Program-made: the position numbers and the translations under genes | The notes under the pieces: model-generated | The model's input: the letters and a program-made list of their open reading frames with translations, nothing else | Database searches by the model: none | What the model was told of the DNA's origin: nothing | In this document: positions 10,065 through 39,299 of the stretch, in pieces | Layout: each line of letters begins with the position of its first letter | How positions within the stretch are numbered: position 1 is the stretch's first letter | NCBI GenBank assembly: GCA_039798005.1 | Contig: JBDKGV010000001.1 | Coordinates: 1-55,515 of the forward strand | Direction: 5' to 3' | Origin: Fibrobacterota bacterium | Lineage (GTDB): Bacteria > Fibrobacterota > Fibrobacteria > UBA5070 | DNA: 55,515 bases

Positions 10065-10658
10065 TCAGGGCTTGAGGGTCAGGAGATTGCGGGCTCCGTC
10101 GAAGATCAATTGAGCCGCCAACGCGGAAAGCACAAGTCCCGTCAGCTTGCTCATGATCACGATGCCGCGATGCCGGATGAGCCTCTCGATGGGATCGGCA
10201 AGCAGGAGCAGGATCCCCACCGACAGGATGGCGCAGGAAAGTGCGCCAAGCGCCACGGCCTTCTGCGTGGCGGTCACCATTTCCGCACCCATGATCAGAA
10301 TGGCACCGGTGGTGGCCGGCCCCACCAGGATCGGGACCGCAAGCGGGACCACCGCGACATCCTCCTCCTTGCTTCCGAGCTGTTCACCACCCTTCACCAG
10401 GTTCACGGCCGAAAGGAAGAGCAGCGCGCCGGCCCCGACGCGGAAGGAATCGATGGTGATCCCGGCCACCCGAAAAATGGCGTTCCCGAGGAAGAAGAGG
10501 CACAGGCTCACCATGAAGACCGCTGCGGTCACCTTGAGCGCGAGATTCCTGCGCTCGCGCGCCGTATGGTCCGCCGTGTACAGGACGAACATGGACAGGG
10601 CGAAAAAGGGGGCGAGAAGCACGAAGAACTTGATCCAGGTATTGACAAAATCCGTCAT
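10065..10658 (-). CDS. MarC-family (UPF0056) integral membrane protein
   Basis: From MTDFVNTWIKFFVLLAPFF onward the protein is multi-TM, with a VPLAVPILVGPATTG motif typical of MarC/NAAT proteins. The start ATG overlaps the upstream stop (ATGA at 10655-10658). The longer listed ORF to 11024 is Arg/Gly-rich junk. Confidence 0.75.
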   Translation of the reverse strand: MTDFVNTWIKFFVLLAPFFALSMFVLYTADHTARERRNLALKVTAAVFMVSLCLFFLGNAIFRVAGITIDSFRVGAGALLFLSAVNLVKGGEQLGSKEEDVAVVPLAVPILVGPATTGAILIMGAEMVTATQKAVALGALSCAILSVGILLLLADPIERLIRHRGIVIMSKLTGLVLSALAAQLIFDGARNLLTLKP

Positions 10659-16281: not shown

Positions 16282-17136
16282 ATGGAGACGCTGCTTGCCA
16301 CCCAGGACTACCGCACTTGGCTCAAGGCGACCCTGTGCGCCCTGCGCAAGCGTCATCCGGCCCGGACAGGCCGCGCCTTGGCGATGCGTCTGGACATCGA
16401 CCCGGCCCATCTCTCCCGCGTCCTCCAAGGCAAGCGCCATTTGGCCGTGCGCCACATCCCTGGGCTTGCCGAATTCTTGGAACTGAACCCGGAATCGACG
16501 CGGATCCTCGAGACCCTCGTGCTCTACCAGACCGCCACCACTCCCGCCTTGAGCCACAAGTATTTCGTCGCGCTCCAGGAGATGCGCGGGGCCCACCACC
16601 GCACCCTGTCCGACGATTCCCACGCCTACTTCAGCCAGTGGATCCATCCCGTGATGCGCACGCTCCTGAGCCTTGTGGAGTTTCGCGGCACCAGTTGGCG
16701 ACGGCTGGCCAGCCTCTTTCGCGCACCCGTGACCCCGGAGGAGGCGCAGGCCTCGGTGGAGCTGCTGCTGCGCCTGAAGCTGATCGCCCCCGATGCGCGC
16801 GGGATCCTGCGAGCCATGCCCGGAACGCTCACCTCCGGCGAAGCCTGGATCTCCGAAGCCGTGCGCAAGTTCCAGAAGGACACGTTGCTTCTTTCCGCCG
16901 AGCTCTTCGACCGGATCCCGAAGGAGGAGCGCGACGTGTCCACGCTCACCATTCCCTCATCGCACGCGCGGCTTGGCGAACTGCGTGACAAGATCCGTCA
17001 TTTCCGTCAGGAGCTGATGGCCTGGGCCCGTGACCTCCCGGAGGAGGATTGCGTAATGCAACTCAATCTCCAGCTTTTCCCGGTGGCCGACGCGAGCCTT
17101 GCCCAGCGCCACCGTGCCCACGGAGCCGCGGAATGA
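16282..17136 (+). CDS. TIGR02147-like (DUF4423) conserved hypothetical protein, probable HTH at the N-terminus
   Basis: The N-terminus DYRTWLKATL...RTGRALAMRLDIDPAHLSRVLQGKRHL matches my recollection of the TIGR02147 paralogous family (Fibrobacter, Bdellovibrio, myxobacteria). Confidence 0.6.
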   Translation: METLLATQDYRTWLKATLCALRKRHPARTGRALAMRLDIDPAHLSRVLQGKRHLAVRHIPGLAEFLELNPESTRILETLVLYQTATTPALSHKYFVALQEMRGAHHRTLSDDSHAYFSQWIHPVMRTLLSLVEFRGTSWRRLASLFRAPVTPEEAQASVELLLRLKLIAPDARGILRAMPGTLTSGEAWISEAVRKFQKDTLLLSAELFDRIPKEERDVSTLTIPSSHARLGELRDKIRHFRQELMAWARDLPEEDCVMQLNLQLFPVADASLAQRHRAHGAAE

Positions 17137-23529: not shown

Positions 23530-24660
23530 ATGCGGATCATCATGTCCCTCGCCCTGGTGCTTTGCGTCTTCACCGCCGTGCACATGTACATCGGTGCGCG
23601 TCTGGTCTCCCTCCAAGTCCTGCCCCGATCCGCCGCCTTCCCGATCCTTGCCGGCCTTGCCGTGGCGATGCTGGGCGCCCTGTTCCTTGCGCGCACCGGA
23701 AGCGGCGCCCTGCCCGTGCGCGCCGTGGTCTGGGTCGGTTACAGCTGGATGGGCATGGTCCTGCTTCTGCTCATCGCATGCCTTGCCGGCGACCTCATCT
23801 CCTTGACGTTTTGGGTTGGACAGAAATTGTCCTTCCCCATCCAGCCGAACACCTCGCTGCGGATCTCGCAATTCCTGCTCGGGGCCGGAGCCTTGGCGGG
23901 TGTATGGGCCATGGTCCAGGCCATGCGCTCCCCGGAAGTCCATGAGGTCGAGGTCCGCGTCCCGAACCTGCCCCGCAGCTTCGAAGGGTACCGTCTGGCT
24001 CACATCACCGACACCCACCTCTCCGTCCTGCTGCGTCGCGCCTGGAGCCTGAACCTGGTGGCCAGCGTCAATGCCGCCCATCCCGACCTCGTGGTGCACA
24101 CCGGGGACATCGCCGATGGCCCCGTGGCGGCGCTTGGCCCTTCGATCGAACCCTTTGCGCATCTGGAGGCCCCGCGCCTGTTCGTGACCGGCAACCACGA
24201 GGCCTACTCGGGACTTGGCGAATGGAGCATGGAAATGCAGCGGCTGGGATTCACCCTGCTGAACAATTCCCACACCGTGATCGAACGCGGCGGCGAGAAG
24301 CTGGTCATCGGAGGTATCCCCGACCACAACCAGGCCAACCACATCCCCACCGACCTCATCGATGCCCGCAAGACCTTCGCCGGTGCCCCCGAAGGCCCGC
24401 GCATCCTGCTTGCCCACCAGCCGCGCAGCGCCTTCCTCGTGCAAGGCCAAAGCATCTCGCTCCAGCTTTCCGGCCACACCCACGGCGGCCAGATCTGGCC
24501 GTTCCACTATCTGGTGCGCCTGCAACAACCCATGAACGCGGGCTTTGCCACGGTCGGCGACGTCCCCGTCTTCACCAGCCGCGGTGCCGGTTTCTGGGGT
24601 CCTCCGCTTCGCTTGTTCGCACGGTCCGAAGTGCCCATCCTGGTCCTGCGCAGAGGCTGA
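23530..24660 (+). CDS. Membrane-anchored metallophosphoesterase (YkuE/YaeI-like)
   Basis: Three to four N-terminal TM helices are followed by calcineurin-like motifs: HITDTH, GDIADG, GNHE and GHTHGGQ. Confidence 0.8.
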   Translation: MRIIMSLALVLCVFTAVHMYIGARLVSLQVLPRSAAFPILAGLAVAMLGALFLARTGSGALPVRAVVWVGYSWMGMVLLLLIACLAGDLISLTFWVGQKLSFPIQPNTSLRISQFLLGAGALAGVWAMVQAMRSPEVHEVEVRVPNLPRSFEGYRLAHITDTHLSVLLRRAWSLNLVASVNAAHPDLVVHTGDIADGPVAALGPSIEPFAHLEAPRLFVTGNHEAYSGLGEWSMEMQRLGFTLLNNSHTVIERGGEKLVIGGIPDHNQANHIPTDLIDARKTFAGAPEGPRILLAHQPRSAFLVQGQSISLQLSGHTHGGQIWPFHYLVRLQQPMNAGFATVGDVPVFTSRGAGFWGPPLRLFARSEVPILVLRRG

Positions 24661-24773
24661 TTTTGGGCGCCTTCGCCCTCCTGCAGGCTACCCTCCGGTC
24701 GGTGCGCCGCATCCTGTATCCTGATCGATGCCATTGCGGCGCACCCGCTGCGCGGCCTTCCGTCCGGCTGGCG
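24661..24773 (+). repeat. GC-rich intergenic repeat, family R2, copy c
   Basis: Shares ttttgggcgcc, gccctcct, a ggtgc...gcacc hairpin and tccgtccggctggcgc with the copies at 32239-32348 and 43040-43122. Confidence 0.6.
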
Positions 24774-24793
24774 CATCTTCGCGTGCCCCTGAG

Positions 24794-26173
24794 CTACCAA
24801 CTCCAATGCACACCCGCCCGTGCCTGGACCTTGTCGGGCAGATGCCCGACAAGCGATCCCGGCCGCGCCCAAGCCAGCGCGGTGATGGCGCTCTCCAAGG
24901 TCACACGACGCCCAAGTGACCGGTGGAGGTCGGCTTGCACAAGCACGCCTTCCGTCGGACCGATCCACAGGGTGTTGATGCCACCTCCCCAGTTCAAGGA
25001 TTCCACGCTCCCCCATCGCACCAGCAGGCGGTGAGCATAGCCATCGATCCACGGGGAAGTCCGGGCGAATTCACCAAGGATCTGTCGAGCCCTGCCACCA
25101 AGCCTGCTCGGCATCGGAATGGACGACAGATCATCGATCGCCTGCGCCATTTCGCGACTTTGGCGCACGGACATGCCGCCGCCTGACTCCACCCATTCCA
25201 AGGAAAGTCGCGTCAGCCCCAGGCCTGCAGTCGGGAGATCGCGCTGGATCTGCACCGCAAGCTCAGGACGAAAATCTCCATTAGGTGCGACAAGCTCCCA
25301 TTGCCCTGCCGGGTCGCGATCCAAGCGCGGGAACTCCCCGTCGTCACGCATCGCGACCTCGCTGGAAAGGAACCACCCGCTTCGGCTCCATTCCCAGCTC
25401 CCACCCAAGGACAGAAATTGTCCTGTTCCGGCTTCCAGACGCAGATCGTGTCCTCCCGGCAAATCAAACGTCTGCTCCAGACGCACGCATCGCCGCTGCT
25501 CCGAAAGGATCCCGTCCCATCCGGTGACCGGGGAGAGCGTCGGGAACACCTGCACCGCGGTCCGCACGCCCTCCGCCCAAGTTCCTTCCACCCCGATACC
25601 GGTCGGGTTGCGCTCCTGCGACTCGTCGGCGCCTTGCGATTGCCTTGCAACCAGAGGCGAGACCCGTGACGGATGCGCCGACAACCCTGCCCCCGGCTCG
25701 ATCCGCATCGATCCGCTCCAAAGCGCAATGCGCCGGTCACCCTCCCAGCCCATCCGCAGCCAACCTTCCCGCAGCACGAACAGGGACCGAGTCCTCTTCG
25801 ATGCGGAATCCACCCCTTCCCCACCCACTAGCGGGGCGGCATGCGCCTGCAGGACCCAACGTCCATTGTCACCCGCAAAGGCGCGGTTCCCGGAGATCCG
25901 CATTTCACTCCACGCTTGCAGTCGCGACGAGGTCGGATCGCTCCCCAACACCGCCCTGACGAAGGATGCGGAATTTCCCTTCAAGGCTCCGCCCCCCGCC
26001 CACAGGCTTCCCTGCGCCTCGAAGTTCCAGCGTGGCGCAATGGGCGCGTCTTCCACGATCGTGGTGGATGAATCGCTCCAATCGGATGAAATGACAGAAT
26101 CCGTCACATCCTCCAGTGACATGCCCATGCTTGCGACCAGAGCGAGATGAGCCGACAACGCGCAAGCAAGCAT
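24794..26173 (-). CDS. Predicted outer-membrane beta-barrel protein; last gene of the envelope operon
   Basis: Hydrophobic N-terminus. Alternating amphipathic strands are rich in G/W/R/S/E. The C-terminal residue is aromatic (…RAGVHWSW). It starts 3 nt after the upstream stop. The family was not recognised. Confidence 0.55.
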   Translation of the reverse strand: MLACALSAHLALVASMGMSLEDVTDSVISSDWSDSSTTIVEDAPIAPRWNFEAQGSLWAGGGALKGNSASFVRAVLGSDPTSSRLQAWSEMRISGNRAFAGDNGRWVLQAHAAPLVGGEGVDSASKRTRSLFVLREGWLRMGWEGDRRIALWSGSMRIEPGAGLSAHPSRVSPLVARQSQGADESQERNPTGIGVEGTWAEGVRTAVQVFPTLSPVTGWDGILSEQRRCVRLEQTFDLPGGHDLRLEAGTGQFLSLGGSWEWSRSGWFLSSEVAMRDDGEFPRLDRDPAGQWELVAPNGDFRPELAVQIQRDLPTAGLGLTRLSLEWVESGGGMSVRQSREMAQAIDDLSSIPMPSRLGGRARQILGEFARTSPWIDGYAHRLLVRWGSVESLNWGGGINTLWIGPTEGVLVQADLHRSLGRRVTLESAITALAWARPGSLVGHLPDKVQARAGVHWSW

Positions 26174-26176
26174 CCG

Positions 26177-26935
26177 TCAATCCCGGGTCTGGAGATCGCG
26201 GAGATTGTCCTTGTCGAAGGTCCCGACCGGAAATTTTCCGGGAACGAAATGCGAGAACCGCACGCGCGTCTGCCGCTTCACGTTCACCGCATCCAGGATC
26301 TCAAGTTCCGAGGCCAGCTCCTTCCCACCGGTGCGCACGAACCCCTTGTACCGCAGGCTCTTCAGCAACTTCCCCGAGCGCGTCAGAAAGCGGGCCTCCA
26401 CCGGCCTTGCCGACCCGGCGCGCACACGCAGCTGGATCCGCTCATGGAGGGCATCGGGACGGCTGGCTTCAAGGTCCAGTGACAAAAATTGTCCGACCTC
26501 CGTCACGTTCCCGCGATAGCGGCCGCGCAATTCCACATTGAGAACATCCCCGATCGAAGCGTCCCCAAGCAGGCGCTGCTGCACCGAGACCGGCACCGGC
26601 CGCGAGGTTCTTCGGGTCAGGATCCACATGTCCGGCCCACTGGAGAGGATCAGGTTCCCCTTCTCCACATCGGGCGAAAGAACACGCAAGAGCACCGCCC
26701 GCGCCGACGGGGACGGATGCACCTTCAACCGGTACTTGCTCGACTCGCCAGGCTTCCCGCCTTCCCACGTCTCGATCTCCAGGTCGCTCTGGTGGTCGCC
26801 TTCGAGGCCACGGAAGCGATCCACGCAGGAAAGCAGGCTGTCCAGCCGTTCCTGGGTCCATGCGACCTGCGCCGGTGCGGCGACGAAAAGGAGAAGGACG
26901 ACAGAAATTGTCAAACACATCCGGAACTCACCCAT
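26177..26935 (-). CDS. LolA-like outer-membrane lipoprotein-sorting-family protein (periplasmic)
   Basis: Signal peptide MGEFRMCLTISVVLLLFVAAPAQVAW. Size and pattern (…DHQSDLEIETWEGGK…YRLKVH…AVLLRVLSPDVEKGNLIL…MWILTRR…) resemble the LolA_like family found next to FtsX-type ABC permeases. The start overlaps the permease stop by 8 nt; an alternative ATG is at 26920. Confidence 0.6.
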   Translation of the reverse strand: MGEFRMCLTISVVLLLFVAAPAQVAWTQERLDSLLSCVDRFRGLEGDHQSDLEIETWEGGKPGESSKYRLKVHPSPSARAVLLRVLSPDVEKGNLILSSGPDMWILTRRTSRPVPVSVQQRLLGDASIGDVLNVELRGRYRGNVTEVGQFLSLDLEASRPDALHERIQLRVRAGSARPVEARFLTRSGKLLKSLRYKGFVRTGGKELASELEILDAVNVKRQTRVRFSHFVPGKFPVGTFDKDNLRDLQTRD

Positions 26936-28253
26936 TGCGCAGGCTTTCGATCAGGGTACGGCGGCATCCGCGCAGACAGGGAAGCAGCGAGGAGAGCACG
27001 ACGGCAGTCAGCACGAATTCACCGACCTGCAGGATCAGGAACGGCTCCTCGATCACCCGCAGGCGGATGACGTACCCTCGACTGGATCCGGGGGGAGGTG
27101 CCGCCTCCAGTCCGTGCAGATTGAAGAGACCGATCACGCCCAAGGCGACCACGGTGGCAAGCACGGTCCCGACGATTCCCAACAGGACGGATTCCGTCAT
27201 GAAGCGCTGCACCAAGGCCGCGGGCGGCGCACCGAAGGCCCGCAGCAGGCTGATTTCCTGACGCCGCTGCAGGATGGCGATCTCCAGGATGCTGGTGATG
27301 AACACGAACACGAAGCCCAGCAGGATGCCTGCGAAGAAGCGGAAGATGCCGGTGTACAGACTGCGCACCGATTGGTAGTACGTGGCCAGTTCCTCCCAAC
27401 GGCGAAACTCCAAGTCCAGTCCTTCCGATTTGGCCAAGCTGCGGGTGCGCGACAGGACCGTATCGAGGTCGTGGCTGTCGTGCAGGAGCACCAGCACCTT
27501 GTCGCACAGGGTGTCCCCGAGCATGTCCCACGCCGTGCCCAACGGGATCTTGAGGGCCACGTCGTCGTAGTCGCGACTGAAGGATTCCGTGATTCCTTTC
27601 ACCTCCAGATCGCTCGATGCCATGTTGCCGCGCGGTGTGGTGGTCAAAAGCGTCAAGCCCGATCGCGGCTTGGCGTCCATGGCCTGCGCCAAGCCAAGAC
27701 CCGTCAGAGCCGTCGCACCATCCCCGTCCCGGAAGCGTTCGCCTTGGGTGACCTGCTCGCCGAAGGCCGACAGCTTGCGATCGGCGACCGGATCGACCGC
27801 CCGCCCGAGGAAGGTCCGGCTGACATTTCCGTTGGACAGGATCCCCGTGAAGGAGAGCTCGGGAGCCACGACCTCAACCTTCGCATTCAGGAAGGAATCG
27901 GCTTGGAACAGATCACGGATCGCGTTCGGGTCGCGCAGCTTCCAGCCCCACGGATCCTTGCGGGCATGGGTTTCATACCCGTTCTTCATGATCTGGAAGT
28001 GGCCGGTCTGGCTGCGGATGGTGCTCTCGGAAAGTCCCCAGAAGCTGTGCTGGAAATACCCGCCCATGGCAAGCAGGGAAAGCACGCACACCTGGATGGT
28101 CAGGAACAGGATGGCCGTGAAGCCAAGACGCCTGACCAGCCCGATGGCCGCAAGACGGACCATGGCAGGGCGACGCCAGGCCATGCCCACCAGCCACAGG
28201 AGCGCAAGCGCCGAAAAAAGATGCAGGAACAACGAGATGCCGGAAGGAAGCAT
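26928..28253 (-). CDS. FtsX-family ABC transporter permease (MacB/LolC/LolE type)
   Basis: Length 441 aa. Topology is an N-terminal TM, a ~230-aa periplasmic domain, then three C-terminal TMs (…LLGFVFVFITSILEIAILQRRQEISLLRAFGAP…), as in type VII ABC permeases. Confidence 0.8.
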   Translation of the reverse strand: MLPSGISLFLHLFSALALLWLVGMAWRRPAMVRLAAIGLVRRLGFTAILFLTIQVCVLSLLAMGGYFQHSFWGLSESTIRSQTGHFQIMKNGYETHARKDPWGWKLRDPNAIRDLFQADSFLNAKVEVVAPELSFTGILSNGNVSRTFLGRAVDPVADRKLSAFGEQVTQGERFRDGDGATALTGLGLAQAMDAKPRSGLTLLTTTPRGNMASSDLEVKGITESFSRDYDDVALKIPLGTAWDMLGDTLCDKVLVLLHDSHDLDTVLSRTRSLAKSEGLDLEFRRWEELATYYQSVRSLYTGIFRFFAGILLGFVFVFITSILEIAILQRRQEISLLRAFGAPPAALVQRFMTESVLLGIVGTVLATVVALGVIGLFNLHGLEAAPPPGSSRGYVIRLRVIEEPFLILQVGEFVLTAVVLSSLLPCLRGCRRTLIESLRNG

Positions 28254-28255
28254 GG

Positions 28256-28804
28256 TCAGTCCTTCCCCGACGACAACCGGGACAAAGCCGAATCGACCAG
28301 AGTCCGTTCACGGGCCGAAAGGACGCCACTGGCAACCAAGACCGAAAGCGAATCGCGCGCCGCCGCGTCCTTCCGGAAGACCGGAGGCAGATGCGAAAGC
28401 GTGAGCGCGTGCGTCAGCCGCAACCAGGTACTGCCCGGATAGCTCAGATGCCCCGCCTCAAATTCCGCAAGCCCGGCATCCACGGACTCGACCGCCTTGA
28501 TCACATCGCCCGCCTTGGAGTATGCTCCCCCGGTGCGGGTGAGCCAACCGGCGTGGACCGCCAGGAACGCATCGGTGTTCCAACGCGCAAGGAATTTCTC
28601 GAGCCGCGCCTTTCGTTCAAGGGCCACGGGGAGGGTTGGTTCCTCTCCCGAAAGCCAGGCCTTGCCCACTTGCAGGCAGGCGCTGGAATCGCGTCCGTCG
28701 CCGCACGCCCGTTCCAGCTCCAGAAGCGGGTCCCCGCCCTTGGCACAGGCGCCAAGGACAAAAATTGTCAAAATCAACGGAATGATGAGGTGATGGGATC
28801 TCAT
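28256..28804 (-). CDS. Hypothetical helical lipoprotein, possible paralogue of 29477..30127
   Basis: MRSHHLIIPLILTIFVLGAC has a lipobox. There is an ATGA overlap with the ATPase stop. It shares GDVI..A...L..L.A and LR(L/I)....L..(L/V)P..F..D...RD..(S/F)L spacing with the neighbouring 216-aa protein. Confidence 0.6.
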   Translation of the reverse strand: MRSHHLIIPLILTIFVLGACAKGGDPLLELERACGDGRDSSACLQVGKAWLSGEEPTLPVALERKARLEKFLARWNTDAFLAVHAGWLTRTGGAYSKAGDVIKAVESVDAGLAEFEAGHLSYPGSTWLRLTHALTLSHLPPVFRKDAAARDSLSVLVASGVLSARERTLVDSALSRLSSGKD

Positions 28805-29484
28805 GAAATGATCCTTCCGTCGCGAAGGTGAATCAAGGCAGACCCCAGCGGTTCCATGAGCGCCGGGTCGTGGGTGGCGATCAGGATGCCGCAGCCTTCC
28901 CGTTCCCGGATGTCCAGGAACAGGTCGAGGATCTCCGCCGCCGTGTGACTGTCGAGGCTGGCCGATGGCTCGTCGGCGATGATCAGACGCGGCTTCTTGA
29001 GCAGGGCCCGCGCCATGCACACGCGCTGTCGCTGCCCTCCGGAAAGCTTGGTGACCCGCTTGTGCGCGTGATCGCCAAGCCCCAGCCGCTCCAACAATTC
29101 CATCGCCTGGAGACGATGGTCCGACGTGACCGGTCCGATGTGGACCTGCGGGGCCAGCACGTTCTCAAGGCTTGAGAGCCATGGGATCAGCCAGTTTTCC
29201 TGGAACATGAAGGAGATCCCTTGCGCCCGAAGCCGGGTCCGGTCGGACTCGCTCAAGGTGGCCGTATCGTGTCCCAGAAACCGGTACGTTCCGGAGGTCG
29301 GGGAATCGAGCAGCCCCAGGATCTGCAAGAGCGTGGTCTTGCCGCTCCCGGACGGCCCAACGACGCAGCGGATCTCCCCGCTGGCCATGGTCAGATCGAT
29401 GTCTTCAAGTGCTGCAAACATCGCACCGCCGGACTCGCCGTACCGGCGGGACACGGCTTTCAACTCCACCAGCGGCTCAGCCAC
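28801..29484 (-). CDS. ABC transporter ATP-binding protein (LolD/MacB-NBD type)
   Basis: Walker A GPSGSGKTT, signature [15 protein letters not shown] and Walker B LIIADEPSASLD. The GTG at 29484 (VAEPLVELKAV) overlaps the upstream gene by 8 nt. Confidence 0.9.
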   Translation of the reverse strand: MAEPLVELKAVSRRYGESGGAMFAALEDIDLTMASGEIRCVVGPSGSGKTTLLQILGLLDSPTSGTYRFLGHDTATLSESDRTRLRAQGISFMFQENWLIPWLSSLENVLAPQVHIGPVTSDHRLQAMELLERLGLGDHAHKRVTKLSGGQRQRVCMARALLKKPRLIIADEPSASLDSHTAAEILDLFLDIREREGCGILIATHDPALMEPLGSALIHLRDGRIIS

Positions 29485-30127
29485 GGATCGACTCCAGACG
29501 TCGGCGCGCCTGGGCGCGCTGCGTGACCGAAGCGATCTTGCGACCGGCCACCAGCTTCCAAAGCGCGGTGGCCTCACCCAGATTCCCGAAGCGGTAATTC
29601 AAGGCGGCCAAGGCAAGAAGCGTTCCTGCATCGGCTTGGGCGAGTTTCGGGAACCGGGCACGCAGGAAGGCTTCGTCCCGGCGCAATCGCTTGTCGACAT
29701 GGAAGATCTCCGGGACCTCCACCAGGCTGTTGATGCGGAAGATCCGCACGGCAAGGTCCATGGAATCCGCGGCCACGGCGGCATCGAGATGCTCGATGGC
29801 CTTGCCGACCCAGCGCGTGGCCACGATCACATCCCCCCGGGTCCGTCGCGCCTGCAAGGCATCCGCCGTCCCCAGGAGTGCCGCATGCAACGCGCTCGGC
29901 TTCGCACGCTGCAGGGAATCCAGCACCGTCCATGCACTATCCAAGGACGGACCTCCGGTGCTGTCCCCTGCCGCCAGGAACAGATGGATGATTCCCCGTT
30001 CCCCTTCGTTTGAACGCTTGAGCTGTCCTTCCAGTTCAGAGTGCGACAGGGAGCCGCAGCGTTCCACCACTTCCTTCGACGACGGGGCGGACTGCAGCAA
30101 CCCCAACAGCATGATCAAGTGAAGCAT
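29477..30127 (-). CDS. Hypothetical secreted helical protein
   Basis: Signal-like N-terminus MLHLIMLLGLLQSAPS. Composition is Ala/Leu/Arg-rich and helical. It sits between the POTRA outer-membrane protein gene and the ABC ATPase gene. Confidence 0.55.
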   Translation of the reverse strand: MLHLIMLLGLLQSAPSSKEVVERCGSLSHSELEGQLKRSNEGERGIIHLFLAAGDSTGGPSLDSAWTVLDSLQRAKPSALHAALLGTADALQARRTRGDVIVATRWVGKAIEHLDAAVAADSMDLAVRIFRINSLVEVPEIFHVDKRLRRDEAFLRARFPKLAQADAGTLLALAALNYRFGNLGEATALWKLVAGRKIASVTQRAQARRRLESIRG

Positions 30128-30146
30128 CAGTTCTCTCCTTGAGTGT

Positions 30147-31448
30147 TCAGAAATCCCGCTCGGTCACCAGACGAACGCCAAGAAAACGTCCCGCCGACCA
30201 TGCGGAGGTGATCAGGAAATCGACGCCGACCGGCGCTCGAAACGTGAAGTGAAGGCCTGCACCATGGACCAGGCCCCGGTGCACCATTTCGCCCTTTGCG
30301 GCGTACGCCTCCAACAGGCCGTGGATCCCGGCATCCAAGCCCGTGAACCACAGGTCACGCCGCCACAGCGAAAATCGCGGCTGCATGGATATGGTCGCGC
30401 TGCGCTCCAGAGCCGGGTCGACGGATTGGGCCTGCCAGACGCCGAAGCCTCCGGACATGCCGGGCAGGAATCCGGGACGATCGACGACCATCCCCGCATC
30501 GCCCACCATCAAGGCGGAGGCTCTTCCCCAAGCCGCGGTGCGCCAGACGCTGTGCAGGCCTGCCGTCGCGAAAGCCGGATCCTTGGACAGATTCTGTCCA
30601 ACCATCAGTTCCGCACGAATGACGCCACCAAGACCCAGACGCTCCTTGGCCCATGACCCGTCGATTTCCCAGGCGGGCCTGGCGTACAGGGAGAGCTGAG
30701 CCTTTCCGGGCAGCTTCCCTTCGGAGTCGCGCACCGCCCAGACTCCGGCCTCCAGGTCCCAAGCGTGAACCGGTGACAGAATTTGTCGAAGCGTGATCGC
30801 AGAGCGAAAATGTTGCAAACCATGATCCGGGGCCGAGGACTCCATCGGGGTCTGATATTGCAGGAGCCCGCCGACGAACAGCCCGGGTCGCAACGCCAGA
30901 TCGCGATGCCCGCCGATCCGGTTGACCCCTGCCCAAAGGCCCCACTGGTCGCCGACCCCGGTGCAGTTGTGATGGCCGAAGTATCCGAAGGCGTTCCCTC
31001 CGCCGTAGCTTCCAAACGTGCGCGATCGCGCCTCCACCAGAATCCGGAACCCCTCCTGCCATGGCTGGACCATGGCGACGCAGGCTTCGAAGAAATCGGT
31101 GCGCCCGGCCATGCGTTCGTTGAAGGACAGGAGCAGCGCCTCCAGCTCCGCCCTCGACAGCTTCTCTCCCCGATGGACGGGAAGGAGATGCTCCACGAAC
31201 CGGGCCACTTGGGGGTCGACTCCGCGCACGGCGATCTCAAGCACAGGCCGGATCGAATCCACGGAGGATTGGGCGCTTTGGCCATCCATTCCCAGCGCCT
31301 GCGCCTCCTCGGGGGAGAGGGCAAGGCTCGGATCAGGCACGAGGGAATCGACCGAAGCGTCCTGCGGAAGGTCTTGGGCACACGCAATTTGGGCCAAAAG
31401 GATGCACAAGACACCCCCCAGGCTTCGGATGGAAGCGGGAATACGCAT
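30147..31448 (-). CDS. Outer-membrane protein with an N-terminal POTRA-like domain and a beta-barrel (Omp85/TpsB-like)
   Basis: Signal peptide MRIPASIRSLGGVLCILLAQIACAQD. POTRA-like segment IAVRGVDPQVARFVEHLLPVHRGEKLSRAELEALLLSFNERM…FRILVEARSR. Gly/aromatic-rich strands. C-terminal Phe (…VTERDF). Confidence 0.65.
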   Translation of the reverse strand: MRIPASIRSLGGVLCILLAQIACAQDLPQDASVDSLVPDPSLALSPEEAQALGMDGQSAQSSVDSIRPVLEIAVRGVDPQVARFVEHLLPVHRGEKLSRAELEALLLSFNERMAGRTDFFEACVAMVQPWQEGFRILVEARSRTFGSYGGGNAFGYFGHHNCTGVGDQWGLWAGVNRIGGHRDLALRPGLFVGGLLQYQTPMESSAPDHGLQHFRSAITLRQILSPVHAWDLEAGVWAVRDSEGKLPGKAQLSLYARPAWEIDGSWAKERLGLGGVIRAELMVGQNLSKDPAFATAGLHSVWRTAAWGRASALMVGDAGMVVDRPGFLPGMSGGFGVWQAQSVDPALERSATISMQPRFSLWRRDLWFTGLDAGIHGLLEAYAAKGEMVHRGLVHGAGLHFTFRAPVGVDFLITSAWSAGRFLGVRLVTERDF

Positions 31449-31469
31449 GGGCGGGAATAGGCTTTGCGG

Positions 31470-32123
31470 TTATTCGGTGCGGGAAGCGGGGGCGAGATTG
31501 CGGCGGAAGGCAAAGAGCCCGGCGCCCCAACCCAGCATTGGATAGAAGGCCCAGGTCAACCGGCCGTGCTGCCACAGGTCAGCGACCACGAAGACGATGC
31601 TCATCCCAAGCCAAGCGAAGATGTGCTCCTGGAAGGCGCGACGCCGAACCTTGTCCACTCCGGTCTCGGCCGTTTTGGGGCGGGATTGCGCCCAGGCATG
31701 GCGTCCATGCAAGGCAAGTCCAGTCCCCCAGCCAAGCAAAGGCCACTGTGCCCAAGTCACGGCGTGGTTCTGCCAAAGGTCTCCGCCAAGGAAGAACACC
31801 GCCCCGGCCAAGTAGAACCACAGATGCTGGAGGAACTCCCGACGCGGATCGCGGGGAAGGAACAGGTCGAACGGCTCGCGGGGCTCCTCGGGGACCGATG
31901 GCACCGCACGGGCGGTTTCAGGCTCGGTCGGAGTCTCCGAAATCTCGCTCAAGTCCACCCCAAAGGCGGCGGCCAAGGACAGGCGGGAATCGCTGGAACC
32001 GTTCCCCTCCCGCTCGATGCGCTGCACCGTACGCAAGCTCAATCCGGCCACGGTGGCCAGATGCTCCTGGGTCCAGGAACGCTCTTCGCGCAAGTTGCGG
32101 ATCTTCTGAGGGTCAAGCGTCAT
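31470..32123 (-). CDS. Membrane-tethered XRE-family HTH regulator fused to two 2TM-type membrane repeats
   Basis: HTH segment IRNLREERSWTQEHLATVAGLSLRTVQRIEREGN. Two repeats follow of the pattern (R)REF.QH...Y......FL...DLWQ....TWA.(W/Y)P(L/M)LGWG.GL. It lies 21 nt upstream of the POTRA outer-membrane protein gene. An alternative ATG is at 32150. Confidence 0.7.
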   Translation of the reverse strand: MTLDPQKIRNLREERSWTQEHLATVAGLSLRTVQRIEREGNGSSDSRLSLAAAFGVDLSEISETPTEPETARAVPSVPEEPREPFDLFLPRDPRREFLQHLWFYLAGAVFFLGGDLWQNHAVTWAQWPLLGWGTGLALHGRHAWAQSRPKTAETGVDKVRRRAFQEHIFAWLGMSIVFVVADLWQHGRLTWAFYPMLGWGAGLFAFRRNLAPASRTE

Positions 32124-32238
32124 CTCTGGCTTGCACGGTAGGTCGGGCATGACTCCAATGTCAACCCGAACCCGCAATGTGACTACGACAACCACCCGCC
32201 AAATGATGCGACAGTGCGATTGCGGCCTGAAAATGCGG

Positions 32239-32348
32239 TTTTGGGCGCCGCCCCGGCAAAGACCGTGGCCGCCCTCCTCCGGGCTCGCCGGGTCCGGCTC
32301 GGTGCTGCGCACCCACCGGTTCGGTGGCCCTGCGTCCGGCTGGCGCGC
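32239..32348 (+). repeat. GC-rich intergenic repeat, family R2, copy a
   Basis: ttttgggcgcc…ggccgccctcctccgggctcgc…ggtgctgcgcacc…ccctgcgtccggctggcgcg is homologous to copies b and c. Confidence 0.6.
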
Positions 32349-32397
32349 CGAGAAGGCCCCCTGGCGCTGGGCAATGCACGACTTTTTTCTCCAAACG

Positions 32398-32440
32398 TGA
32401 CAAATTATTAGACAGAATTTGTCCGTGATGTGACATTTAC
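32398..32440. promoter_or_regulatory. Candidate operator in the divergent promoter region between the envelope operon and the collagen-like gene
   Basis: Sequence is tGACAAATTattaGACAGAATTTGTCcgtgatgtGACATTTac. It holds the full 13-mer GACAGAATTTGTC (32411-32423). There is an 8-bp inverted repeat GACAAATT/AATTTGTC. A third GACA half-site is also present. It is the only AT-rich island in this intergenic region. Confidence 0.45.
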
Positions 32441-32509
32441 GCCCGTTCTCCAACCGCCCGCAGGACTCCTGCGTTCCATCGTTCATCCAACTCCGAAGAG
32501 GTCAGACTC

Positions 32510-34636
32510 ATGAGTCTTGTCACGCGTTCCGCCGTGGCTGCAGGTTTGCTTGCCGCCACGGTACCGCAGGCGCAATTGGTGGTTTCCCACCAGTCGGCGA
32601 CCGGCAGCAGCAACAGCAATTTGATCCGCCCTTATCTCAAGATCGAGAATCAAGGAAGCGAAACCGTCGATCTGGCCAAGACGACGCTGGACTACCTGAT
32701 CAACGACGATGCCGCCCCGACCGCACTGGTGGCCGACTGCTGGTACAACTCGGCAGGCTCCTGCAGCGATGTGACTGCTGAGATCTCGAACATTCCGGCT
32801 CAGAAAGAGGGCGTGCGGCAGGCCAATGTGCGGGTGCGCTTGGGCTTCCTGCGTGGTCAGTTGGCCGCCGGGCAGAGCGTCATCCTCCAGTGGGGTCTGC
32901 ACGAGCAGAGCTGGCAGCACATCTTCAACGAGCAGGACGACTGGTCCTTCGTCTCGACCAACGGCCAGTGGACGGTGGACACCTACGTGCCCGTGGGCCA
33001 GCCCGGCAAGGAGCCTTCCGCCCCTGCCCTGGTCTGGAAAGGCCTGACCGACCAACTGCCTGACATCGCCTCCTACAAGGTTGGCGATGTGGTCCGCGAC
33101 CGCAACACCGGCTCGACCTATGTCTTGAACGACGGAATCTGGCAATTGCTGGCGGAATCCGGCAAGGACGGCGCCGTTGGCCCCATCGGACCCCAAGGAC
33201 CTGTCGGTGCAACCGGTGCCGCCGGTCAAGATGGCTCAGTCGGTCCTCAAGGACCCAAGGGTGATGTTGGCGCAACTGGACCCGCCGGTAAGGACGGTGC
33301 CGTCGGTGCTATCGGTCCCCAAGGACCTGTCGGTGCAACCGGTGCCGCCGGTCAAGACGGTGCAATTGGACCCGTCGGTCCTCAAGGGTCAATCGGCGCA
33401 ACCGGTGCAGCTGGTCAAGATGGTGCAATTGGCCCCGTTGGACCGCAAGGACCCATCGGTGCAACTGGTGCGGCCGGTAAGGACGGAGCTGTCGGTGCTC
33501 AAGGACCCAAGGGCGAGATCGGTCTGACCGGTGCCGCTGGCAAGGACGGTGCCGTCGGTCCCCAAGGACCCAAGGGTGATATCGGTCTGACCGGTGCCGC
33601 TGGCAAGGACGGTGCCGTCGGTCCCCAAGGACCCAAGGGTGATATCGGCCTGACCGGTGCCGCTGGCAAGGACGGTGCTGTTGGTGCGACGGGCGCCCAA
33701 GGACCCATCGGTCTGACTGGACCCGCTGGTAAGGATGGTGCTGTCGGTGCAATCGGACCGCAAGGCGCAAAGGGTGCTGTTGGTGCGACTGGCCCTCAAG
33801 GCATTGCCGGTGCAACTGGTACTGCAGGTAAGGATGGAGCGGTCGGTGCTATTGGCGCTCAAGGACCCGCCGGTGTACCGGGTGTTGCTGGACCCGCTGG
33901 TCCCCAAGGTCCGAAGGGTGATATCGGTGCAACCGGACCCCAAGGACCTGCCGGTGTGCCGGGTGTTGCTGGACCCGTTGGCCCTCAGGGTGCCAAGGGC
34001 GATGTGGGACCTGCTGGCCCGACTGCCAATGTGACGGCACTTCAGGCACAGGTCACTGCGTTGCAGGCACAACTGGCAGCAGTTGCGAGCGGGAACTTCG
34101 TGTATGACTCCCGCGATGGCAAGGTCTACAAGACCGTCGTGATCGGAACCCAAACTTGGATGGCTGAGAATCTGAACTATGCTGGGAGCGGGACCTGCTA
34201 TGGTGGGGATGCGGCGAATTGCGCCGCCTATGGACGCTTGTACACTTGGGCAGAAGTGATGGGTGTTGCCTCCACTTACAACACGACGAGATTGAATCCC
34301 ACCCCACCCTCAAAGGGCATTTGCCCAACGGGCTGGCATGTCCCCGTCAATTCTGAATGGTACACCCTTAACAGTGCAACAGGTTTCGATGCTGCAGCCC
34401 TCAAGTCGACCAGTGGTTGGCAAGTCAACGGAAACAACAGCTCAGGCTTCAATCTTCTGGCTGGCGGCTTTTCTGGCGGCTATCAAGGAGATATGGCGTT
34501 ACTGTGGGGAGCTTCAGAATACTCTGACAATGGCGTCTACCGTATCGCGCTACGCTCCTCGTGGAGTTCACTTGAATCCGGAGGGGGAGTGGTGGGGAAA
34601 ACCGCTGGCATGTCCTTACGCTGCGTGAAGAACTGA
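32510..34636 (+). CDS. Secreted CBM3-like / collagen triple-helix repeat / coiled-coil / FISUMP (TIGR02145-like) domain protein
   Basis: Signal peptide MSLVTRSAVAAGLLAATVPQAQ. The CBM3-like segment NSNLIRPYLKIENQGSETVDLAKTTLDYLIN…DDWSF…GKEP is collinear with CipA CBM3. About 95 uninterrupted Gly-X-Y triplets span 33161-34021. They are followed by VTALQAQVTALQAQLAAV. The C-terminus is FISUMP-like: YKTVVIGTQTWMAENLNY…GRLYTW…CPTGWHVP…LRCVKN. Confidence 0.85.
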   Translation: MSLVTRSAVAAGLLAATVPQAQLVVSHQSATGSSNSNLIRPYLKIENQGSETVDLAKTTLDYLINDDAAPTALVADCWYNSAGSCSDVTAEISNIPAQKEGVRQANVRVRLGFLRGQLAAGQSVILQWGLHEQSWQHIFNEQDDWSFVSTNGQWTVDTYVPVGQPGKEPSAPALVWKGLTDQLPDIASYKVGDVVRDRNTGSTYVLNDGIWQLLAESGKDGAVGPIGPQGPVGATGAAGQDGSVGPQGPKGDVGATGPAGKDGAVGAIGPQGPVGATGAAGQDGAIGPVGPQGSIGATGAAGQDGAIGPVGPQGPIGATGAAGKDGAVGAQGPKGEIGLTGAAGKDGAVGPQGPKGDIGLTGAAGKDGAVGPQGPKGDIGLTGAAGKDGAVGATGAQGPIGLTGPAGKDGAVGAIGPQGAKGAVGATGPQGIAGATGTAGKDGAVGAIGAQGPAGVPGVAGPAGPQGPKGDIGATGPQGPAGVPGVAGPVGPQGAKGDVGPAGPTANVTALQAQVTALQAQLAAVASGNFVYDSRDGKVYKTVVIGTQTWMAENLNYAGSGTCYGGDAANCAAYGRLYTWAEVMGVASTYNTTRLNPTPPSKGICPTGWHVPVNSEWYTLNSATGFDAAALKSTSGWQVNGNNSSGFNLLAGGFSGGYQGDMALLWGASEYSDNGVYRIALRSSWSSLESGGGVVGKTAGMSLRCVKN
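33521..33700 (+). repeat. 63-bp tandem repeat (~2.8 copies) inside the collagen-like region
   Basis: The unit ggtctgaccggtgccgctggcaaggacggtgccgtcggtccccaaggacccaagggtgatatc starts at 33521, 33584 and 33647. It encodes GLTGAAGKDGAVGPQGPKGDI. Confidence 0.85.
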
Positions 34637-37321: not shown

Positions 37322-37383
37322 GGGATCATTTGACGGATTCTGTCTTACGACGGAATCCGTCATGATTCCGGTTCCCCAAAACG

Positions 37384-37418
37384 AAAAAGCCATCCTTTGC
37401 GGGATGGCTTTTCCTTTT
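37384..37418. terminator. Bidirectional Rho-independent terminator between convergent genes
   Basis: aaaaa-agccatcc-tttgcg-ggatggct-tttt: the stem is flanked by an A-run on one side and a T-run on the other. Confidence 0.7.
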
Positions 37419-37449
37419 CCTCAAGCGACCTTGGATGGCCGCAGGAAGA

Positions 37450-37860
37450 TTACAGCTTGGGGGTCTTCAGCTTGGCGGCGCCGGCGTCGATCTTCTTGTC
37501 GGTGGCGGCACCGGCCTTGTTGATCTTCTTGGCGGTGGTGTCGGCAACGGCCTTCAAGGCGGCGCTGTCCTTGGCGACTTCGGCCTTCACGGCGGCGTCA
37601 ACCTTGGCTTCGGCCTTGGCCTCGGCCTTGGCGGCGACGTTCTTGGCACCGGCCTTGGCGGCCTTGATGCTGTCGCCGGCGGCAGACTTCATGTCCTTGA
37701 CGCTGGGAGCCGAGACGGTCGAATCGACCTTCGGAGCGGTCACGGTCGGTGCGGTGACCGTCACGGCCGGAGCCGTGGCGGAAGCCTTGGGCAATCCCAG
37801 GGCGAAGACGGAAGCGGATGCAAACGAGACAACAAGAGCAAGGCGAACGGATGAGCGCAT
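37450..37860 (-). CDS. Secreted Ala/Lys-rich low-complexity protein
   Basis: Signal peptide MRSSVRLALVVSFASASVFA. The mature part is AK/AE-rich, with amphipathic repeats (AKAEAKAEAKVDAAVKAEVAKD…). Confidence 0.6.
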   Translation of the reverse strand: MRSSVRLALVVSFASASVFALGLPKASATAPAVTVTAPTVTAPKVDSTVSAPSVKDMKSAAGDSIKAAKAGAKNVAAKAEAKAEAKVDAAVKAEVAKDSAALKAVADTTAKKINKAGAATDKKIDAGAAKLKTPKL

Positions 37861-37955
37861 GAAGGACTCCAATTTGGTAAGGAACAATGCCGACAGGACT
37901 CGGCAGCATGAATCTTTAGATAGCCATTTTCACAAGGCTTCCAAAGGGGACAAGC

Positions 37956-39299
37956 TCAAAATCGCGGTGGACGCGGTCCCCAAGGATGAGCAGGCCGCTT
38001 GGGCCAAAGCTTGACAGGAGCCACGCGGCCAGCGACCAGTCGGCTCGAAGTGGTGTCCTTGAGATCCTTCCAGAGCGAATCCATCTCCGGGGCGGTGAGA
38101 TGCCCCCACGCCAGAAGCACCCTCGTCCCCGTCGTGTCGCTGCGGCTGATGCGGTTGCCCAGGCCGGAGACGCGCATGTCCCAGTACTGCTTGAAGCCGG
38201 CGGCTTGGGATCGGCTCTGCCAATCGATGATGGCGGCGGCGGCGTAGCGCTGGCTGTCCTTGCGCCACAGCCAGACCTGATCGCCATTCCAACCTTCCAC
38301 GGCGCTGCCGGAATTGCCCATGACCTTGCGGTTCATCGACATCAAGAGGGTATTGAGCATCAATTCGCCCATCTGGTCGAAACCCATGTTGGCCCAGCCT
38401 TCGAGGCGATTCATCGCACTCCATGTGCGGGTGGTGTCCCAAGTGCGGTACGGGGCATGACCGATCCCCTGCGCCGGATAAAGCACATGGTGGGTCGTCG
38501 CGGGAGGCGTCTCATGGAGCAGGTCCACGCCTGCCCACCCCTTGGCGCGGCGCACCTCATGCACGAACTTCGGCCCCCAATAGTAGGGCAGGAAACCGGG
38601 CAAGGTGTTGACCAGCGGGAGTTTCCCGTAAGTCGATTGATCGAGGAGGTCAGCCAGTTCCGTCATGTTCTGGAAGTCGTTGTCGGCATCGATCAGGGAA
38701 AGCGAAGGATTCCGGCGGTCGTAAAGCATCTGCGTGTACTCCGCATCGCCTTCCACCACCATGTTGTGGGCATACATTCCATCGAGGCTCGTGCTCCGGT
38801 CCTTGGCCAGATCGAAGTTCTGATCCTGGAGTGCGTGGACCAGCTCATGGGCCATGGTGGACCTTTGATCCTGGCTGCTGGCCTCGCTCACGATCCAGAG
38901 ATGATTGGTGCCCGGGACGTAGAACCCGACGATCGCCGAGCCGCTGAAGGAATTTTCCGCGCTGTCGTAGCTGGCCGGGCTTGCGGTGTAGCCAAGCCCA
39001 TAGGCCAGTTGCCCGAACGTCAAGTCGTCCGGCCCCGCTTCGCCTGGATTCGTGGCCGCCTCGATCGAATCGATCAAGGCCGGCAGATGAGCGCGGTTCA
39101 CGAAGGAGGCCTTCACCGGCTGCTTGAAGGCCAGTCCGCGCAAGGCGGCGATCTCGGAGGACAGGGAATTCACCTGCACCTGCAAGGCGGAATCGGAGAG
39201 ATCCAGCTTGACGGGGTCATTGGTGCCCTCAAGACCATAATTGATCTGTGCGCAACCGATGGACAGGAGAAGGGGCAGCACGATCATGGCGCGTTTCAT
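37956..39299 (-). CDS. Putative zinc metalloprotease lipoprotein (HExxH)
   Basis: MKRAMIVLPLLLSIGCAQ has a lipobox. The HELVHALQDQ zinc-binding motif is present. The longer listed ORF N-terminus is not needed. Confidence 0.65.
   Translation of the reverse strand: MKRAMIVLPLLLSIGCAQINYGLEGTNDPVKLDLSDSALQVQVNSLSSEIAALRGLAFKQPVKASFVNRAHLPALIDSIEAATNPGEAGPDDLTFGQLAYGLGYTASPASYDSAENSFSGSAIVGFYVPGTNHLWIVSEASSQDQRSTMAHELVHALQDQNFDLAKDRSTSLDGMYAHNMVVEGDAEYTQMLYDRRNPSLSLIDADNDFQNMTELADLLDQSTYGKLPLVNTLPGFLPYYWGPKFVHEVRRAKGWAGVDLLHETPPATTHHVLYPAQGIGHAPYRTWDTTRTWSAMNRLEGWANMGFDQMGELMLNTLLMSMNRKVMGNSGSAVEGWNGDQVWLWRKDSQRYAAAAIIDWQSRSQAAGFKQYWDMRVSGLGNRISRSDTTGTRVLLAWGHLTAPEMDSLWKDLKDTTSSRLVAGRVAPVKLWPKRPAHPWGPRPPRF

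Follow-up and report, generated by a model that had tools for sequence, protein, structure and literature searches.

The stretch of DNA considered here, a 55,515-nt segment of contig JBDKGV010000001.1 from the Fibrobacterota bacterium assembly GCA_039798005.1 (hereafter the window), carries repeated copies of a short palindrome whose strict form is GACRRWWWYYGTC, a 13-bp word of the type GAC-RR-WWW-YY-GTC; a sequence that bears it is, for example, GGACAGAAATTGTCC. An earlier note on this DNA had counted twelve copies, concentrated on an operon for envelope proteins, and had proposed that selection acts on them as nucleic acid. Every one of the twelve is present at exactly the coordinates reported, and three weaker GACA-N5-TGTC matches (19252, 36052 and 40058) are present as well, while two further copies, at 27186 (GACGGATTCCGTC) and 37349 (GACGGAATCCGTC), had been missed, so that the strict pattern occurs 14 times in the window. 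On the gene calls of the JGI metagenome contig 3300043426 (Ga0451745_0000122), which matches the window, eleven of these copies are coding and three are intergenic (32411, 37332 and 37349), where only one intergenic copy had been recognized.

Copies of the palindrome in the window

All sites were scored with a symmetrized 17-nt weight matrix, with hits counted at a score of at least 13. Scores in the window are bimodal, with 14 sites at 19 or above, three at 14-15.5 and the remainder at 10.6 or below. The operon, its first gene and the individual copies are listed below with the peptides that they encode; related loci are designated by L numbers.

24794..32123, minus strand: hot-spot operon of the LolCDE-/LolA-like envelope export type
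31470..32123, minus strand: HTH_3 (XRE) plus 2x2TM membrane protein (the regulator), the candidate binder of the earlier note
10644..10656: GACAAAATCCGTC, overlapping the ATGA stop/start junction of a hydrolase gene and MarC; weight-matrix score 25.3; on the minus strand it reads ATG ACG GAT TTT GTC
23819..23831: GACAGAAATTGTC, within a Metallophos gene (23530..24660, plus strand); encodes G-Q-K-L-S
25410..25422: within the gene for a 444-aa putative outer-membrane protein (24794..26128, minus strand); G-Q-F-L-S
26093..26105: +23 of the 444-aa gene; V-T-D-S-V; kept in L006, L005 with one mismatch
26481..26493: within the LolA-like gene (26177..26935, minus strand); G-Q-F-L-S
26900..26912: LolA-like signal peptide, +23, 16 nt beyond the FtsX stop codon; L-T-I-S-V; intact in L004, one core mismatch in L005
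27186..27198: FtsX codons 352-356; [ML]-T-E-S-V
28757..28769: signal peptide of the 182-aa lipoprotein, +35; L-T-I-F-V; kept in L021, L005 and L006
30586..30598: 433-aa gene; G-Q-N-L-S, with a conserved GGA codon; position kept in L021 and L005, weaker core in L006
30775..30787: 433-aa gene; R-Q-I-L-S; kept in L021, decayed in L005 and L002
32411..32423: intergenic; 288 nt (about -300) upstream of the regulator gene and 87 nt upstream of a divergent collagen/CBM3/Fib_succ_major gene
37332..37361: tandem pair (37332-37344 and 37349-37361) in the 3′ untranslated region (UTR) of the BCCP gene
49503..49515: Pel9A-like beta-helix gene (49044..50651, minus strand); M-T-D-F-V; not kept in the L006 orthologue
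16987..16999: weak copy, GACAAGATCCGTC, score 15.2
33131 (score 14.3), 40058 (15.5), 36052 (10.6) and 19252: other weak copies

Over-representation of the palindrome is genuine and lies far beyond chance. In 300 dinucleotide shuffles of the window the strict word appeared 0.10±0.31 times, compared with the 14 copies observed, and the looser GACA-N5-TGTC, for which a hand estimate had predicted fewer than one copy in 55 kb, appeared 0.86 times, compared with 11 observed. The codon-preserving shuffle that had been proposed as a check, in which proteins were held fixed and synonymous codons were permuted within genes, gave 0.54±0.69 coding copies, with a maximum of 4 in 1000 shuffles, compared with the 11 observed. 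Enrichment is confined to the GAC and GTC arms: in 189 kb of related DNA the RRWWWYY core occurs 41 times between GAC and GTC arms, and at most three times with any other of 64 arm choices, the preferred spacing between the two arms being N7. The excess of purine-rich halves on the plus strand, which the earlier note had taken as a further sign of selection, is no signal in itself; it is a by-product of gene orientation, because nearly all host genes lie on the minus strand.

Four copies lie within the first 16 codons of their genes, in agreement with the clustering at gene starts that had been described, and across the sampled sites a distance of 60 nt or less from a gene start or stop is about 2.3-fold over-represented (P about 0.001-0.009, values that orthology inflates). 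Several cistrons in the window overlap by 4-8 nt in ATGA-type junctions, at 28801-28804, 26928-26935 and 29477-29484 in the operon and at 10655-10658 between the hydrolase gene and MarC, an arrangement that suggests translational coupling. Three palindrome copies follow junctions of this type at a distance of 16-71 nt, and a fourth, 10644, overlaps the one between the hydrolase gene and MarC. The start of the 444/459-aa putative outer-membrane protein is ambiguous, being 26128 in L006 and in the JGI call and 26173 in the longer L005 form, and the choice shifts the offset of copy 26093 from +23 to +68. The segment holding copy 32411 is specific to the window and is missing from L021; the gene for the collagen-repeat/CBM3/Fib_succ_major surface protein (32510..34636), with its flanks (about 32348-34869), is an insertion relative to this 91%-identical locus, in which the carboxyltransferase gene directly adjoins the regulator promoter. 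The gene content of the window also includes GH44 and a TIGR02147 (Fsuc_second) paralogue, besides the Pfam Fib_succ_major and CBM3 domains, and these features assign it to Fibrobacterota, as do the names of two relatives given below.

Selection on the DNA word

Rare codons, the shuffles, motif-negative orthologues and the pattern of substitutions all bear out the claim that selection acts on the nucleic acid and not on the protein. The codons in the copies are indeed unusual for the genome (ACA 0.04, TCT 0.03, ATT 0.17, TTT 0.21 and CGA 0.10), and in L006, at 68% GC, the lipoprotein site is spelled TTG ACA ATT TCT GTC despite codon usages of 0.02, 0.05, 0.03 and 0.03 for its first four codons. 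The word had been said to occur in at least three frames; strong copies in the window use two, and the third is used in relatives, with frame usage of 18/12/6 across 36 coding sites from the window and relatives. The FtsX site reads xTG ACR GAA TCY GTC in all six motif-positive genomes, and the AT-rich FtsX orthologues that lack the motif have AESV, TENI or GEIL at this position. Host peptides elsewhere (GQxLS, RQILS, LTIFV, LTISV and VTDSV) are likewise not conserved in motif-negative orthologues, which means that the peptides follow from the DNA word rather than dictating it. L003 has lost the lipoprotein site, and a replacement copy lies 12 codons downstream in another reading frame.

Conservation in orthologous operons, one of the checks that had been put forward, extends beyond neutral expectation. 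Sites occupy the same position across orthologues with 48-76% protein identity, at about +850 of the 433-aa gene, in the lipoprotein signal peptide, at FtsX codon 352 and at +23 of both the LolA-like and the 444-aa gene, and where amino acids are identical the fraction of identical codons is 0.66 inside sites, compared with 0.48 for codons elsewhere in the operon (P=1.5e-4). Seven sites can be aligned with two close relatives, L021 (about 91% nucleotide identity) and L004 (94%). Among these, none of 63 arm and center positions is substituted, where 4.8 substitutions would be expected (P=0.007), and the four substitutions at the 28 degenerate positions are all purine-to-purine or pyrimidine-to-pyrimidine changes. 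The substitutions thus mirror the degeneracy of the motif, a pattern that reflects purifying selection keeping the sites.

An artifact arising from codon preferences, amino-acid composition or recurrent protein motifs has next to no probability left. Two peptide classes do recur among the copies (T-x-[FS]-V and [GR]-Q-x-L-S), and fixing the proteins raises the expectation from 0.1 to 0.54, but the coding copies exceed that value some way beyond any shuffle, intergenic copies exist, the codons used are rare, the peptides are missing from motif-negative orthologues and the L003 site has moved into another frame; the synonymous shuffle, the motif-negative orthologues and the substitution pattern together rule it out.

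Short mRNA hairpins with a GACR/YGUC stem, affecting translation or stability near cistron starts, had been suggested as a role for the copies, and the four copies close to gene starts, the enrichment near gene boundaries and the strong fold of the tandem pair, with its one compensatory change, would all be in keeping with such a role. Single copies, however, behave otherwise. A stem in RNA would leave a strand asymmetry, which is not seen: read in the mRNA sense, the two inner potential pairs of the 36 coding sites comprise 8 G·U and 9 A·C combinations, and a hand tally of the 14 window copies puts the frequency of A·C at random expectation on both strands. The one site in a plus-strand gene has the same symmetric form as the ten in minus-strand genes. 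In 61-nt contexts no folding signal is found, z-scores ranging from -2.0 to +0.3 for 10 of the 11 coding copies, with copy 30586 at -2.46, and none of these single-copy values is significant. The window contains no match to an Rfam family, and an RNA search of it found no tRNA or tmRNA. Hairpins are thereby largely refuted for single copies and as a general explanation are extremely improbable. With a protein reading excluded, and an RNA reading excluded for single copies, the word is therefore a symmetric signal on double-stranded DNA.

The tandem pair is the only one among the folded copies to fold significantly. It follows the BCCP stop codon and precedes a canonical intrinsic terminator (37388-37419), and because each copy is palindromic the two can pair with each other, in a hairpin (37322-37369) with a 22-bp stem, a folding free energy of -36.7 kcal/mol and a z-score of -5.6. 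The pair is kept in L021, where the substitutions 37335 G>A and 37358 C>T fall on pairing partners of the stem and replace a G-C by an A-U pair. The 3′ UTR of the carboxyltransferase/BCCP operon accordingly holds two hairpins, the palindrome-pair stem followed by the terminator. The open reading frame (ORF) at 37397..38014 ('p205') has a doubtful start because it begins inside this terminator. A conserved promoter site upstream of small ORFs (p205 in the window and p206 in L006) was considered and rejected, as the two proteins are unrelated and the window pair is in a 3′ UTR.

Spread across Fibrobacterota and the envelope-operon hot spot

Most related loci were reached through exact-protein look-ups, and scans with FtsX as bait gave one locus each from genome and metagenome collections; L012, L016 and L017, which lack the transporter operon, were reached through homologues of the regulator. 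L002 comes from a metagenome-assembled genome named "uncultured Fibrobacteres bacterium", and one regulator homologue is named "Fibrobacterota bacterium". Weight-matrix hits in the eight GC-rich Fibrobacterota loci, which represent about eight lineages, were as follows.

Window: 17 hits, shuffle mean 0.36
L002: 5 hits, shuffle mean 0.07
L003: 11 hits, shuffle mean 0.18
L005: 7 hits, shuffle mean 0.11
L006: 8 hits, shuffle mean 0.04
L012: 13 hits, shuffle mean 0.14
L016: 3 hits, shuffle mean 0.02
L017: 3 hits, shuffle mean 0.16

Enrichment is thus 20- to 200-fold in all eight. The earlier note could be read as tying the motif to the envelope operon, which does not hold, since housekeeping loci without any relation to that operon show as strong an enrichment in other GC-rich Fibrobacterota, L012 being a pure housekeeping locus (ZapA, FolD, XseA/B, IspA and Dxs); the word is therefore a property of a GC-rich Fibrobacterota clade and not of the operon. 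Three AT-rich orthologous transporter loci (L007, L009/L010 and L011; 34-44% GC) hold no copies, although their composition would favor the A/T core. The WWW center is kept even at 70% GC. Lineages differ in dialect: L003, L016 and L017 use almost only GACGGAWTCCGTC, and the window, L005 and L006 mix GACAA, GACAG and GACGG half-sites. Density is roughly 0.1-0.6 sites/kb across the sampled genomes and about 1/kb in the hot-spot operon, which implies hundreds to thousands of sites per genome.

In 1.04 Mb of viral DNA the empirical background is 0.012/kb, and searches of viral contigs with the exact 15-mer gave single chance matches only. One 8.3-kb viral stretch, L028 (IMGVR_UViG_3300037400_004655, GC 35%), has five weight-matrix hits, at 2355, 3842, 4586, 6075 and 8159, three of them with full GAC..GTC arms, compared with an average of about 0.1 extra hit in the other 119 viral stretches. 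These hits could have arisen by chance in AT-rich DNA or could belong to an unrelated set of TTGAC-N7-GTCAA operators, and were judged not compelling.

Within the window the concentration of copies on the envelope operon is real and is an evolutionarily conserved hot spot. The operon encodes, in order, the HTH_3-2TM regulator, a 433-aa protein, a 216-aa protein, an ABC ATPase, the 182-aa lipoprotein, an FtsX permease, a LolA-like (TP_0789-like) protein and the 444-aa protein, and this order is kept in L002, L005, L006 and L021 and partly in L003. Nine of the 14 copies fall in 24794-32423, at 1.07/kb inside compared with 0.19/kb outside (P=0.00085); copy 23819 is inside the Metallophos gene. 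Corresponding densities are 0.80 and 0.09/kb in L005, 0.68 and 0.21/kb in L006 and 0.99 and 0.33/kb in L003, so that the hot spot is 3-9 times denser than its flanks in four genomes (combined P 8e-5, an inflated value because orthologous sites are not independent).

The same contrast is seen in realization, defined as the share of those peptide positions at which some synonymous spelling could give the word that do give it. In the window eight of nine compatible positions are realized in the operon, compared with two of 13 elsewhere (P=0.0015), where chance would give about 2.5%. Other operons give 4/5 (L005), 2/3 (L006) and 4/5 (L003), and other loci 6/11 (L012), 4/7 (L016), 1/10 (L017) and 0/7 (AT-rich loci); pressure for the word is pervasive in some lineages and concentrated on the operon in the lineage of the window. 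Three other causes of the hot spot were rejected. A difference between core and accessory DNA does not fit, because the flanks hold core genes without sites, no copies being found in the genes for RNR, PurT, sigma-54 and its activator, or the sulfate ABC transporter. Passive permissiveness of envelope proteins does not account for the realization of eight positions in nine, as against two in 13, and a replication landmark or foreign island is at odds with the absence of a GC-skew switch in the window and with normal GC content at the hot spot.

In the AT-rich relatives L009/L010 (1-8100 and 13476-19400) and L011 (1-8515) the orthologous ABC, FtsX and LolA-like genes are found inside a lipid-type cluster with ketoacyl-synthase, ACP, FabA, ApeI/ApeP-like and KR genes, which resembles those for aryl-polyene lipid biosynthesis. 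This context suggests that the operon in the window may export an outer-membrane lipid or lipoprotein.

Candidate readers and known genomic words

The palindrome is probably the docking site of a putative DNA-binding protein. Its architecture, with two invariant 3-bp arms one helical turn apart, R/Y-degenerate inner flanks and a strict 3-bp A/T center, is what a symmetric dimeric helix-turn-helix or winged-helix protein would be expected to read by contacting successive major grooves, and from it we infer a dimeric reader; A/T centers narrow the minor groove and bend readily. The more specific proposal that the clade-wide word is read on double-stranded DNA by an abundant chromosome-associated protein, either architectural or global-regulatory, stands a roughly even chance of being correct. 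Selection writes the word into coding DNA, in all three frames, through rare codons and even amino-acid changes. On this proposal the reader would act like the proteins at Noc, SlmA and MatP sites or as proposed for the cyanobacterial word HIP1, and an array of many sites would have a local effect on the operon. This proposal is favored because realization is strongly site- and region-specific within one genome, which a uniform drive from uptake or repair does not predict. An architectural, modification or uptake-type role had been among the suggestions made at the outset, and this is the class to which the evidence points.

Several observations weigh against a chromosome-associated reader. 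More than half of the compatible positions are realized in the ordinary housekeeping genes of L012 and L016, and such pervasive realization is more typical of drive-type words than of sites for regulators or nucleoid proteins. About 88% of the copies are inside genes, a figure near the coding fraction, and there is no strong association with promoters. Genomes carry sites for Noc, SlmA and MatP at a density lower by a factor of ten or more. Non-independence of orthologous sites inflates the P values for the hot spot, as noted above, and the sample amounts to only about 190 kb from about eight lineages, in loci of up to 55 kb.

A drive-type genomic word, like the DNA uptake sequence (DUS) and uptake signal sequence (USS) or HIP1, would accumulate and be maintained by preferential uptake with recombination, or by preferential repair or methylation, and would have no local function at each site. 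We regard this as unlikely, yet as the most substantial of the rivals. In several lineages the word extends across the genome, the housekeeping loci L012 and L016 realize 55-57% of their compatible positions, copies occur in all frames and roughly in proportion to coding DNA, with mild enrichment near gene ends, and lineages have dialects (GACGGAWTCCGTC versus mixed half-sites). Peptides are imposed at poorly conserved residues, as with uptake sequences, a paired copy forms a hairpin just past a gene, and HIP1 shows the same conservation within and between ORFs. Realization is nonetheless far from uniform within one genome (8/9 versus 2/13, P=0.0015), the core genes for RNR, PurT and sigma-54 have no sites, and rare codons are used where uptake sequences favor preferred ones. 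The density of uptake sequences correlates poorly with gene function, whereas here one operon is 3-9 times denser than its surroundings; known uptake sequences are, moreover, not palindromic, and are denser, at about 1/kb. Of uptake machinery, the window encodes only a PilB-like ATPase.

A target for a DNA methyltransferase or restriction-modification system, of a type I-like bipartite GAC-N7-GTC form and possibly epigenetic in function, is considerably less plausible. The symmetric 3-N7-3 layout resembles that of type I or type IIB targets. HIP1 abundance has been linked to orphan methyltransferases (PMC4390886; bioRxiv 2026.06.24.733823). In the Fibrobacterota word, by contrast, the 7-bp spacer is constrained to RRWWWYY, unlike the true N spacers of such targets, and the word is about 100-fold over-represented, whereas restriction targets are normally avoided. 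GANTC is present in only five of the 14 copies, and the window encodes no DNA methyltransferase, its only methyltransferase being of the UbiE/Methyltransf_11 small-molecule type.

The adjacent XRE regulator had been put forward as the protein for which the copies serve as operators. In its local form this idea holds that the membrane-anchored HTH_3-2TM protein would occupy palindromes throughout the operon to which it belongs, serving as a roadblock-type repressor or as a membrane tether, which is doubtful, though somewhat better placed than a methylation target. In each of the six motif-positive genomes with the operon the regulator gene stands first in it, and regulator and motif are both missing from the orthologous operons of AT-rich relatives. 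All motif-positive loci derive from lineages in which the regulator family occurs, and that family is apparently confined to uncultured Fibrobacterota. Family members share an almost unchanging recognition helix, in keeping with the fixed arms of the palindrome, and XRE dimers typically bind palindromes of such size. A copy lies upstream of the regulator gene in the window (-300) and in L006 (-123), and the corresponding palindrome in L003 is weak. Co-occurrence of regulator and motif is, however, confounded by phylogeny and by the route through which loci were reached. The link is rated weak because no site lies within about 1.5 kb of the regulator homologues in L012, L016 and L017, though the motif is enriched elsewhere in those loci, because the regulator promoters of L005 and L021 hold no palindrome, and because a different, strongly conserved upstream block (ATTGGCGG with TGNCG repeats) is a more natural autoregulatory site. 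Nor do 13 sites in 20 kb of housekeeping genes make a regulon. In a genome-wide version, the membrane-embedded protein would read hundreds of intragenic palindromes and so attach the chromosome to the inner membrane, with the highest density of attachment at the envelope operon; this is still less probable, and if true would give Fibrobacterota a Noc-like or transertion-like tether, for which the phylum has no known precedent. A PDB sequence search with the regulator returned generic XRE hits only.

The upstream block is a non-coding segment of about 100 nt found upstream of every HTH_3-2TM gene, and is conserved in seven loci despite protein identities of 45-75% and differing gene neighborhoods.

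Window 32124-32233, minus strand: regulator upstream block
L005, about 6010-6145: regulator upstream block
L006, about 6070-6173: regulator upstream block
L003, about 7160-7272: regulator upstream block
L012, L016 and L017, upstream of the gene at 10001: regulator upstream block

Its elements are the invariant ATTGGCGG, TGNCG repeats about 11 nt apart, a -35 element (TTGACATT), and CATGCCCGACC followed by a TAnnnT -10 element. The last ends about 13 nt before the ATG, and the regulator transcript would therefore be nearly leaderless; the block is probably the regulator's own control region. Other DNA-binding candidates in the window, encoded at 2336-4078, 46816-47580, 47343-49040 and 16282-17136, comprise sigma-54, a GAF-domain sigma-54 activator, a cNMP-binding (Crp-like) protein and the TIGR02147/DUF4423 paralogue, none of which is linked to the motif.

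Few genome-wide words are known to be written into coding DNA by selection. HIP1, uptake sequences and Chi are such cases, as are the sites for Noc, SlmA and MatP, and each has shed light on DNA uptake, repair or chromosome organization. The palindrome would be the first selection-maintained genomic word reported for Fibrobacterota, under selection strong enough to override extreme codon bias and to alter amino acids. The defined 17-mer offers a testable handle on a DNA-binding system in organisms not yet grown, and the word should also serve to mark the lineage when contigs are binned or recent DNA acquisitions are sought. A literature search for the motif turned up nothing beyond the generic GAC-N7-GTC operators of RisR and DriD, and no report from Fibrobacterota was among its results. 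The Rrf2 protein RisR of Myxococcus and the WYL protein DriD (CGAC-N7-GTCG) are winged-helix homodimers whose operators share the arm sequence and spacing of the palindrome. Those operators number a few per genome and are found in promoters, whereas 88% of the Fibrobacterota copies are intragenic and include copies in unrelated housekeeping genes.

Uptake sequences such as Neisseria DUS and Pasteurellaceae USS are 9-12-bp words with hundreds to thousands of copies, mostly or often in ORFs, where they reshape peptides at poorly conserved residues; they are read in frames with preferred codons, and their density correlates poorly with function. They also have lineage dialects, and paired copies form hairpins after genes. 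The Fibrobacterota word shares with them its dialects, a hairpin-forming pair and the imposition of peptides at poorly conserved residues. Uptake sequences are, on the other hand, asymmetric and occur at about 0.4-1/kb, roughly independently of function, while the Fibrobacterota word is palindromic, is spelled in rare rather than preferred codons and is distributed very unevenly within one genome, with a background of 0.1-0.3/kb and a 3-9-fold hot spot.

The Noc-binding sites (NBS), SlmA-binding sites (SBS), MatP matS (GTGACRNYGTCAC) and RacA ram (TGACGCCGGCGTCA) are 12-14-bp palindromes read by dimeric helix-turn-helix proteins. They are mostly intragenic and conserved, some have TGAC..GTCA arms, and Noc ties DNA to the membrane. 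The Fibrobacterota word resembles them as a palindrome of the 12-14-bp class that is mostly intragenic and conserved. They number tens per genome, are restricted to particular regions and have known binders, of the ParB, TetR or MatP family, whereas the Fibrobacterota word is at least 10 times denser and its reader is putative.

In behavior the closest analogue is HIP1 (GCGATCGC) of cyanobacteria, which is 15- to 300-fold over-represented, intragenic and conserved at orthologous positions within and between ORFs, and for which no peptide, RNA or gene-regulation role has been found and a role in chromosome or nucleoid structure has been proposed. Like HIP1, the Fibrobacterota word is at least 15-fold in excess (in eight loci) and is conserved within and between ORFs, the intergenic case being the tandem pair kept in L021. 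Periodic spacing along the chromosome, over 10-90 kb, is a further feature of HIP1-type words. The two words are unrelated in sequence, and no GATC or CGATCG is present in the copies. HIP1 is an exact GC-rich 8-mer that contains GATC/CGATCG methylation targets and often has more than one copy per gene, whereas the Fibrobacterota word spans 13 bp, tolerates either purine or either pyrimidine at its R/Y positions and requires an A/T center, occurs at 0.1-0.6/kb in another phylum, and has a conserved 3-9-fold operon hot spot without a known methylation target.

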